Of a DNA stretch of 17,813 bases, positions 4,720 to 5,693 are shown in pieces. The DNA is from a virus (lineage: Duplodnaviria > Heunggongvirae > Uroviricota > Caudoviricetes). Position numbers and translations under genes: made by a program. The notes under the pieces are model-generated. The model saw only the letters and a list, made by a program, of their open reading frames with translations, ran no database searches and was not told where the DNA came from. Each line of letters opens with the position of its first letter. Positions within the stretch are counted from its first letter, which is position 1. The stretch is from IMG/VR virus record IMGVR_UViG_2529292871_000023. One strand, given 5' to 3'.

Positions 4720-5052
4720 ATTGATAACAGAGGGCGTTGCAGCGGGGTTGTCACTTAAGCGTATGGTCAACCTGACAACCCGGTGTCCTCAACGGGGAAG
4801 GAATAACCCCGCCATACTTACCGCCGCGCCATTTCGCGGATTGCCACAACCGGAAGCGCACGGTCGAATTAAATTTAACGACGACCTATCTATGAACCAG
4901 CTAACCTCGCCGTGCGCTTTCGCGTTATGCTCTGACTTTTCAGAGAAATATCCTTTCAGTAAACTGTCAGTGCCGGATGTTCACCCGTGTCCGGCGCACG
5001 CACTCCACCTCACCCGTGGAGAACTCCTTAATTACTAACCTCAGGAGGGTGA

Positions 5053-5286
5053 ATGTTAAAATCAACTCTTATTGCTAAATGCCTTTATCAAAATCGCATG
5101 GTAAGCAGCATTTCAATAGGCGAGTCTGCAGTTAAAAGTATTTTCGAAGAGTACTTTCCCGGGCATGATTTTAATAAATGGAATACCAAATTACCGCCAG
5201 CAGTTTCAACGCGTATTCTGAAAGCAACCGAAAGAGCAAGTACAATTCGCGTTAACTATTTCATTAAAGATTTGTGGGATCTTTGA
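5053..5286 (+). CDS. Hypothetical 77-aa protein, transcribed against the surrounding leftward operon
   Basis: Strong ribosome-binding site AGGAGG 5 nt before the ATG. AT-rich coding region. Its 3' end overlaps the convergent gene 5264..5671 by 23 bp. Confidence 0.5.
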   Translation: MLKSTLIAKCLYQNRMVSSISIGESAVKSIFEEYFPGHDFNKWNTKLPPAVSTRILKATERASTIRVNYFIKDLWDL

Positions 5287-5671
5287 TATCCACAGAGCCT
5301 AAAGTATGTGCATATGGATGTGCTATTATGCGCCCTCGCAGATTTGCATCATTTTCTAAATTCACTGAACGAAACAGGGCATCAACAAGGCTCTGTACAA
5401 TGCAAAGGCAATCGAAGACTGTCGCCGTTTCTGTTTTGATTGATGAAAGAACATGGCCATTCACGCAAACAGAAATTACCCGTTTATTAACATCGCTTTC
5501 CTGCTTTTGATTATCAGAACCATATAGCCCAGAAAAAGCATTGCGCACATTACGAACCATATTATCGATGGTTTCTTTTTCTACGGTACTCAGGTCAAGA
5601 GTCGCCAGTTGTGAACGAACTATATTCGATGCCATTTCCTGGAATGGCGTTGGTAAATCTTTAAATTCCAT
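5264..5671 (-). CDS. Hypothetical 135-aa protein within an AT-rich insertion
   Basis: GAGG ribosome-binding site upstream of ATG at 5671. No recognisable motif. Not expected between ydfC and dicF in the K-12 Qin arrangement as I recall it. Confidence 0.55.
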   Translation of the reverse strand: MEFKDLPTPFQEMASNIVRSQLATLDLSTVEKETIDNMVRNVRNAFSGLYGSDNQKQESDVNKRVISVCVNGHVLSSIKTETATVFDCLCIVQSLVDALFRSVNLENDANLRGRIIAHPYAHTLGSVDIKDPTNL

Positions 5672-5693
5672 TATTAGCCTCGTTGGTTAGCTA

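Follow-up and report, generated by a model that had tools for sequence, protein, structure and literature searches.

The locus analysed here, a convergent pair of small genes within the early-left (dicBF) operon of a lambdoid prophage of Shiga-toxigenic Escherichia coli (STEC), shows partial resemblance to several described systems. It lies in a stretch of 17,813 nucleotides of viral DNA (IMG/VR record IMGVR_UViG_2529292871_000023), the whole of which is called the window below, and consists of an open reading frame (ORF) of 77 residues on the + strand, ORF77, and one of 135 residues on the − strand, ORF135. In position and proposed logic the nearest systems are the prophage exclusion or abortive infection (Abi) genes with self-immunity, SieB/Esc and BstA/aba, together with moron hotspots; in allele architecture the polymorphic toxin-immunity loci are nearest, and in transcript geometry the convergent type I toxin-antitoxin (TA) loci. 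Among the last, txpA/RatA and bsrG/SR4 of Bacillus prophages have convergent, 3'-overlapping transcripts. In the SieB-Esc system of P22 and lambda, Esc is an in-frame product of sieB. The aba of BstA-aba is a DNA element (PMC8585504). Moron slots, such as those of lambdoid PL-operon genes and the defence hotspots of P2/P4 (Rousset et al. 2022, PMC9122126), hold many unrelated alleles at one site between conserved flanks. Polymorphic toxin-immunity loci, such as CdiA-CT/CdiI and Rhs, combine a constant N-terminus with a variable C-terminal domain and a co-varying small neighbour, and have orphan small genes elsewhere. By their defining features the pair is neither a type I nor a type II TA locus, nor any PADLOC system, nor SieB. 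ORF77 and the C-terminal domain of ORF135 very probably form a conserved cognate pair that occupies a polymorphic slot in the operon.

Pairwise alignment with the Qin prophage of E. coli K-12 (NC_000913.3) reveals a clean indel of 633 bp, accounted for in full by the two ORFs plus their ribosome-binding sites (Table 1). An earlier, sequence-only reading of the window had proposed an extra segment of about 1 kb, an estimate that proved too large. The positions that it gave for the two convergent ORFs (5053..5286 and 5264..5671), for their 23-nt overlap and for the AGGAGG site of the + strand ORF were borne out, and its description of the pair as AT-rich and foreign in composition agrees with a GC content of about 0.40 across the gene pair versus 0.50–0.53 across positions 4700–5000, as well as with the absence of the pair from K-12. 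The cassette thus has the properties of an accessory insert, lying between genes that are adjacent in K-12 Qin and differing from them in base composition; the well-known K-12 Qin dicBF operon (PMC5069750, PMC10448788), unlike that of the window, does not carry it. The two ORFs are conserved and uncharacterised, and are not routine parts of the dicB operon. Counterparts of the cassette reach 99.4% identity in the PPompW prophages of STEC and 93.9% in phage Evi. The K-12 state may have arisen by deletion between two short, imperfectly repeated sequences, GAGGCTAATAAT and GAGGTTAGTAAT, although the K-12 junction retains parts of both.

The association between the two genes was evaluated by searches from both sides. 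Starting from ORF77, the partner domain (the C-terminal domain of ORF135) was found in 93 of 95 loci, comprising 45 distinct pairs, always in convergent orientation and with a 3' overlap, which is exactly 23 nt in 88 of the 93. The two loci without a partner are one at a contig end and one distant orphan in a chromosome. The reverse search, begun with the partner domain, gave a convergent and overlapping ORF77-family gene in 74 of 78 viral contigs (48 distinct pairs), with overlaps of 23, 26, 33 or 51 nt. The pair is spread over Escherichia, Serratia, Klebsiella, Proteus and Leclercia. In the loci of Serratia, Klebsiella and Leclercia, the gene for the cI (S24) repressor has the partner gene immediately downstream. 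In the one Serratia locus examined for operator repeats (L005), two copies of an OR-type operator, GTTTGTATATCAAAAC, are present between cI and the partner gene, which makes the partner the first early-left (PL) gene there and places it under repressor control; the ORF77 homolog of this locus is antisense to the early-left operon.

Homologs of ORF77, with 55–72% identity and almost all of 77 residues, occur in many Enterobacterales, including Klebsiella, Raoultella, Serratia, Dickeya, Xenorhabdus, Morganella, Yersinia, Salmonella, Proteus and Photorhabdus. In comparisons with these homologs the synonymous sites are saturated (proportion of synonymous differences, pS, 0.57–0.86), and the corresponding non-synonymous proportion, pN, is about 0.3 (pN/pS about 0.36). 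Where synonymous sites are unsaturated and the ratio of non-synonymous to synonymous substitution rates (dN/dS) could be computed, it is 0.18–0.37. Selection on ORF77 is purifying. When 1.84 billion representative proteins were searched exhaustively with a profile, a family of 163 clusters emerged, nearly all standalone proteins of 74–80 residues, in which Trp43 is invariant and Met1, Ile7, Cys10, Leu11, Phe31 and Ile71 are at least 90% conserved; no catalytic-looking motif is evident among the 163 clusters. The AlphaFold2 model of ORF77 consists of five helices and is of high confidence (predicted local distance difference test, pLDDT, 96.7; predicted template modelling score, pTM, 0.85), yet no fold relative was found for it. 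Distant family members with 34–43% identity (L024:3989-4228 and L107:3001-3225) are solitary in Alteromonadales-type chromosomes, where they are flanked by a chemoreceptor gene and a GH31 glycosidase gene, with neither a partner nor a prophage context.

ORF135 is a modular protein, full-length homologs of which are confined to Escherichia and Salmonella. Its residues 1–55 share 70–86% identity with the N-termini of proteins of 122–212 residues that have mutually unrelated C-termini. Residues 60–135, on the other hand, can be aligned without gaps to standalone Serratia and Klebsiella prophage proteins of 77–80 residues with 34–38% identity, and a profile search shows the partner domain to be standalone in Serratia, Klebsiella, Raoultella, Dickeya, Citrobacter, Enterobacter, Leclercia and Yersinia. 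The N-terminal extension of the partner domain is interchangeable, being either absent, a helical hairpin or a ClpX-type zinc finger. The AlphaFold2 model of ORF135 is weaker (pLDDT 64.9), too weak to merit a fold search, and shows an N-terminal helical hairpin, followed by a beta hairpin and two helices, with residues 114–135 disordered. The tail of the partner domain is as conserved as its folded core (0.63 versus 0.60–0.65), yet has a pLDDT below 50, as would be expected of a segment that folds on a binding partner. Residues Ala109, Asn110, Gly113 and Gly125 of the domain are invariant, and the conserved tail follows the pattern LE.EAN.SG.TI.H...G. A sub-threshold Pfam match of ORF135 to ROS_MUCR (E = 0.03) was disregarded. 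The zinc-finger fusion (C4 type, Pfam E = 6.3e-9) is observed in Citrobacter (L019:3501-3920) and in one other lineage (L096); the Citrobacter fusion pairs with a divergent, unannotated ORF77-like gene of 78 residues (L019:3870-4106), with an overlap of 51 nt. At L103:4212-4793 a YdfC-like coiled-coil segment and the partner domain share one reading frame, the longest open frame there, which may represent either a fusion or an over-extended ORF call.

In E. coli the site of the cassette, flanked by ydfC and the DicF precursor, is polymorphic, and the sequence-only suggestion that the pair might prove a variable cassette in related prophages has held: there are at least five unrelated alleles besides an empty state. 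Among 5,426 complete E. coli genomes, counted at a query coverage of at least 80%, an empty K-12-type junction was found in 2,695 and the allele of the window (135 + 77 residues) in 646. The four other pairs, carried by other prophages, were found in 594 (208/212 + 69 residues), 125 (133 + 76 residues), 84 (124 + about 73 residues) and 8 genomes (201 + 63 residues), such that up to about one quarter of the complete genomes, including O157 and O145 STEC, hold some allele. In every allele the operon-sense protein opens with the same N-terminal domain, and the small gene begins right after a shared junction, CCTCAGGAGGGTGA; in the other alleles, too, the two genes converge without exception, and overlap by 0–41 nt. 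The C-terminal domain and the small antisense gene thus vary together, and the N-terminal domain and the junction are constant. No homology was detected by hhalign between the ORF77 family and the small proteins of the other four alleles. All slot alleles match PHROG families of unknown function only, and their proteins, those of 122–212 residues included, contain no Pfam domain. In the 201-residue allele (L010:4001-4775) and in two further loci, L118 and L166, the partner domain carries an additional C-terminal domain and ORF77 is absent; in L010 a different convergent gene of 63 residues takes its place, likewise with a 23-nt overlap.

Like other morons, the cassette is inserted between genes that are adjacent in a relative, has a composition that departs from its flanks and lies in a repressor-controlled region, and the slot resembles moron slots in its allelic diversity. 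Unlike morons and hotspots, each slot allele is a convergent overlapping pair of which one member is built on a constant N-terminal domain, and, in contrast to the P2/P4 defence hotspots, no allele is a known defence system. We regard the slot as a prophage accessory hotspot with uncharacterised proteins and an unusual, fixed architecture. The slot and its genes are undescribed in the searchable literature on dicBF and on lambdoid hotspots; in the published comparison of dicBF loci, non-conserved genes are shown as blanks and the slot is not described (PMC5069750, PMC10448788).

The regions upstream of ORF77 and its homologs were compared. In other genera a block of about 60 nt directly upstream of the homologs is conserved, TTTCACCAC-N9-GGTGGTATCTTGG...CACACAACCAAGAAG; it occurs at L005:4940-5000, in L007, L020, L092, L102 and others, and contains two short hairpins. 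Within the block, 35–45 nt before the ATG, is a TGnTAxxxT element in which the TG and the positions T1, A2 and T6 are fixed and the rest is variable. This pattern is the signature of an extended −10 element, from which we infer that ORF77 homologs in these genera probably have a promoter of their own. In the E. coli version, alignment to the block is confined to the CTCCAC/GTGGAG hairpin, and the −10-like element is missing. No consensus sigma-70 site was found upstream of ORF77 in the E. coli cassette, nor a terminator between the genes, signals that a typical moron would carry. As no terminator was found in a scan of the region between ORF77 and ORF135, each transcript must run antisense into the other gene. 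ORF135, judged from its sequence context, is transcribed with the repressor-controlled operon.

The GC-rich segment that separates the cassette from DicF had been counted as part of the insert and regarded as a structured leader of the pair. Neither view could be sustained, since K-12 possesses positions 4719–5041 with about 96% identity and the segment is a K-12-type DicF precursor, transcribed on the operon strand. From this precursor RNase III yields a 190-nt DicF species and RNase E a 53-nt form in K-12 (PMC5069750, PMC10448788). The lengths of the reported species would place the RNase III end of the 190-nt form at about position 4856. The three hairpins that had been noted in the GC-rich region (4745–4781, 4793–4811 and 5003–5021) are indeed present, and two of them fall within the 190-nt species; the folding of the leader as a whole is unexceptional compared with shuffled sequences (z = −1.4; 8 of 100 shuffles at least as stable). 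A permissive Rfam search of positions 4600–5800 returned DicF only.

The segment does contain a conserved stem of 18 bp, with the putative RNase III end inside its 3' arm (Table 1). In the alignment of this stem 93% of the cells are paired, versus 28–43% when the partner strand is slid, and four pairs change on both sides; its G-U pairs place the structure on the operon-sense strand. The stem is kept in K-12 and in the other E. coli alleles, and also beside ORF77 homologs in aligned Leclercia, Serratia and related loci (L005:4842-4939, L020:4053-4132, L092, L093 and L102). Rfam gave no match, DicF included, in the stem-aligned loci L005 and L020 or in L007 and L021. From these alignments the stem that holds the putative RNase III site appears to be an older feature of the early-left transcript, adjoining the pair on its downstream side, and it may predate the association with DicF. 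The proposed link between structure and gene pair thus has a limited basis, in evolutionary terms, in that the stem is retained beside ORF77 homologs in other genera; K-12, however, has the stem without the pair, and strand and position do not suit a leader.

The reading that we favour, with a rough probability of 0.42, is that ORF77 and ORF135 constitute a cognate binding pair under opposite regulation, in which ORF77 would be a lysogen effector and ORF135 its neutraliser. In favour of this reading are the clean indel relative to K-12, the conservation of both proteins with purifying selection on ORF77, the reciprocal co-occurrence, the joint variation of C-terminal domain and small gene in E. 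coli, the conserved but low-confidence tail, the interchangeable N-terminal extensions, the operators of L005 and the −10-like element of the other genera. According to this reading the two proteins would bind each other, with the conserved tail of the partner folding onto ORF77. In the lysogen, with the operon repressed, ORF77 would be made from its own promoter, and the partner would be made only once the repressor is lifted, and would then neutralise ORF77; in parallel, ORF77 synthesis would be shut off by convergent transcription and by RNA duplexes. The likeliest role of ORF77 would be to benefit the lysogen, for instance by excluding incoming phages or defending against them, with the partner as the self-immunity or anti-effector of the prophage; a TA, exclusion or anti-phage role of the pair would be plausible. 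The assignment of ORF77 as effector is favoured by the occurrence of family genes alone in Alteromonadales chromosomes, which indicates that ORF77 needs no antidote and makes a toxin reading of ORF77 less likely. The compactness of ORF77 and the partial disorder of its partner likewise favour ORF77 as effector and ORF135 as neutraliser, and a neutralising role is further favoured by the 201-residue allele, L118 and L166, which stack the partner domain and an extension without an ORF77-family gene. Such stacked domains would be easily accounted for as neutralisers and awkward as toxins, and thus fit the former better.

The proposed logic resembles that of SieB-Esc and BstA-aba (PMC8585504), in which a lysogen effector is located near the immunity or early-left region and a phage element spares the phage's own lytic cycle. 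Unlike in these systems, neutralisation would fall to a protein in its own right, encoded on the other strand, and there is no similarity in sequence or fold; no SieB homology was found, either as a Pfam match or as a functional PHROG match. As in type II TA loci, two small adjacent prophage genes encode one compact product and one product with a conserved, disordered C-terminal tail. However, in all related loci the genes converge instead of being co-transcribed, they belong to no known toxin or antitoxin family, and ORF77-family genes occur alone in chromosomes. The 3' overlap without a terminator is shared with txpA/RatA and bsrG/SR4, and predicts RNA duplexes and RNase III sensitivity; in contrast to type I TA loci, both partners are conserved soluble proteins, and neither a small hydrophobic toxin nor a non-coding antitoxin RNA is present. 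With CdiA-CT/CdiI and Rhs the locus shares its division into constant and variable parts and the orphan small genes. It differs from them in that the proteins are tiny and cytoplasmic, have no delivery or secretion domain and no toxin homology, and in that the small gene is on the opposite strand.

Several observations weigh against the effector-neutraliser reading. Neither ORF77 nor ORF135 matches Pfam or NCBIfam, or any of the 5,027 PADLOC models (PADLOC-DB v2) at E-values up to 1, and searches of the Protein Data Bank by sequence and profile gave nothing below E = 0.5, in keeping with the earlier remark that neither protein has a recognisable motif. No convincing sigma-70 promoter was found upstream of ORF77 in the E. 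coli version, a single weak candidate being TTTTCA-17-TAAACT at 4937–4965, so that expression of ORF77 in the lysogen remains a prediction for the window. The partner domain occurs without ORF77 in the 201-residue allele, L118 and L166, the co-occurrence of the two genes could be explained by tight linkage alone, and the polarity of effector and neutraliser derives from indirect arguments. That the reading extends to the whole slot is possible, though less likely than not: the slot would then be an undescribed hotspot of at least five unrelated effector/anti-effector pairs, in each of which a small protein expressed in the lysogen would defend or otherwise benefit the host and would be disarmed on induction by a cognate early protein from the opposite, overlapping strand. 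The ORF77 pair, spread across the enterobacteria, would in that case be the first example of a novel type of defence that comes with its own self-immunity.

The polarity of the pair might also be reversed, in a kil/anti-kil or TA-like arrangement where the C-terminus of ORF135 would harm or take over the host, like DicB, DicF and YdfD, and ORF77 would be a constitutive antidote against leaky or stochastic derepression. A constant N-terminus, a variable C-terminus and a co-varying small downstream gene are the layout of polymorphic toxin-immunity loci, the solitary chromosomal ORF77-family genes resemble orphan immunity genes, and the dicBF operon is toxic and spontaneously switched on in a subpopulation of cells (PMC10448788). 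Nevertheless we consider this arrangement unlikely, given that the 201-residue allele, L118 and L166 would carry the supposed toxin domain without ORF77, that no toxin-like motif or homology was found, and that in the models the partial disorder of the partner is more suggestive of an antitoxin, and the compactness of ORF77 of an effector. A regulatory device, in which transcription of the small gene would damp early read-through into dicF, dicB and ydfD, or two linked morons, with proteins whose functions are unrelated or that have none together, would account for a convergent, terminator-less layout that persists in all alleles despite unrelated proteins, for the toxic genes directly downstream and for the conserved RNase III-type stem that follows the pair on the operon transcript. 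Such explanations are quite unlikely in view of the conservation of both proteins across genera at which synonymous sites are saturated, the strict pairing that survives extensive phage mosaicism (about 45–48 distinct pairs per locus search) and the co-variation of the C-terminal domain with the small gene; the E. coli version, moreover, has no evident promoter.

An arrangement as first proposed, a foreign module of about 1 kb in which a GC-rich RNA leader serves a pair that is TA or exclusion cargo, is compatible with the pair being a foreign insert relative to K-12 and with the occurrence of the long stem and the CTCCAC hairpin beside ORF77 homologs in other genera as well. It is nonetheless very improbable: in K-12 the segment without the pair is the known DicF precursor, the G-U pairs set the stem on the operon strand and not on the ORF77 strand, and the promoter-like element of the other genera lies downstream of the stem, which leaves the stem outside the ORF77 mRNA. 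That the two ORFs are chance open frames without coding function, as their shortness and lack of functional annotation might suggest, can practically be dismissed, because ORF length is conserved, identity across genera is 55–72% with dN/dS of 0.18–0.37, both ORFs have strong ribosome-binding sites and match PHROG families, and the ORF77 model is confident.

Table 1. Features of the cassette and of the surrounding early-left region in the window.
Feature	Coordinates	Strand	Basis or remark
Cassette	5042-5674		633-bp indel relative to K-12 Qin; two convergent genes with ribosome-binding sites
ORF77, gene of 77-residue all-helical protein	5053-5286	+	RefSeq WP_000920491.1, phrog_10348; antisense to dicBF operon
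AGGAGG ribosome-binding site of ORF77	5043-5048	+	at junction CCTCAGGAGGGTGA common to all E. coli slot alleles; read directly, allele alignment
ORF135, gene of 135-residue modular protein	5264-5671	-	RefSeq WP_000394552.1, phrog_1363; operon sense
GAGG ribosome-binding site of ORF135	5678-5681	-	read directly
ORF135 N-terminal domain, residues 1-55	5507-5671	-	predicted helical hairpin; AlphaFold2 helices 8-23 and 35-50; PHROG domain hits
ORF135 C-terminal domain, residues 60-135	5267-5494	-	homologous to standalone 77-80-residue partners of ORF77 in other genera
ORF135 conserved tail, residues 112-135	5267-5338	-	predicted disordered
3' overlap of ORF77 and ORF135 coding sequences	5264-5286		23 nt; no terminator between genes
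DicF precursor, long untranslated region of dicBF transcript	4719-5041	-	about 96% identity to K-12 ydfC-dicF spacer; outside insert
Conserved stem, 18 bp, loop of about 46 nt	4843-4930	-	putative RNase III end (about 4856) inside 3' arm
Hairpin CTCCAC/GTGGAG	5003-5021		aligns with CACCAC/GGTGGT element that immediately precedes ORF77 homologs in other genera
ydfC, upstream flank of slot	5694-5912	-	RefSeq annotation of 99%-identical locus; K-12 alignment
DicF small RNA	4667-4718	-	Rfam RF00039, 76.7 bits (gathering score 48), E = 1e-15
dicB	4304-4492	-	Pfam DicB, E = 1.7e-37; same operon, downstream of slot
DUF1482/ydfD gene	4116-4307	-	same operon
Hypothetical gene	5985-6284	-	between repressor gene and ydfC
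DicA-like helix-turn-helix repressor gene	6549-6956	-	first in gene order of early-left operon
Cro gene	7033-7260	+	divergent from repressor gene

The window as a whole shows 99% identity to strain 2014C-3061 and its O157/O145 relatives. Its early-left operon is on the − strand and runs in the order repressor, hypothetical gene, ydfC, slot, DicF, dicB and DUF1482/ydfD. Identity to K-12 is 96–100% for ydfC, the long untranslated precursor of DicF, DicF itself, dicB and ydfD. The ydfA and ydfB genes are swapped for another hypothetical gene (phrog_21318; 5985-6341, − strand), which makes the interval from the repressor gene to ydfC mosaic as well. Beyond ydfD, the exonuclease VIII/YdfE-like gene (1552-4023, − strand) is intact in 2014C-3061 (823 residues), and in the window several 1-nt indels split it over at least three frames, reflecting either a pseudogene or sequencing errors. 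Further along the + strand are a gene for the AcfC-family adhesin Paa (10865-11623), a virulence cargo with an SBP_bac_11 fold, just upstream of which a degraded fimbrial gene is annotated in a related strain, and a hok/sok-type type I TA locus at 11812-12114 (Rfam sok 103.9 bits, 11812-11961; Hok/Gef ORF 11902-12114, Pfam E = 2.9e-23). Downstream of the Q antiterminator gene (14358-15053) is a tRNA cluster (15247-15487, + strand) with tRNA-Met (CAT), tRNA-Arg (TCT) and an aberrant tRNA-like gene at 15324-15399 for which a 2-nt 'anticodon' was called, followed by an Rfam STnc100 match of 100.8 bits (16259-16431, + strand).

The dicBF operon is a well-studied model of the effects of cryptic prophages on E. 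coli. If the slot pairs are effector/neutraliser modules, they would represent a new architecture, convergent overlapping genes inside an early operon, among prophage systems for defence, self-immunity and kill-switching. The hypothesis is directly testable, since the pair is small and cloneable and is carried by a functional phage, Evi. The output of DicF and DicB could, in addition, be altered from one prophage to another by convergent transcription and by the RNase III stem next to the pair. DicF-dependent control of virulence has been reported in enterohaemorrhagic E. coli, and any effect of the slot on DicF output would bear on that control.

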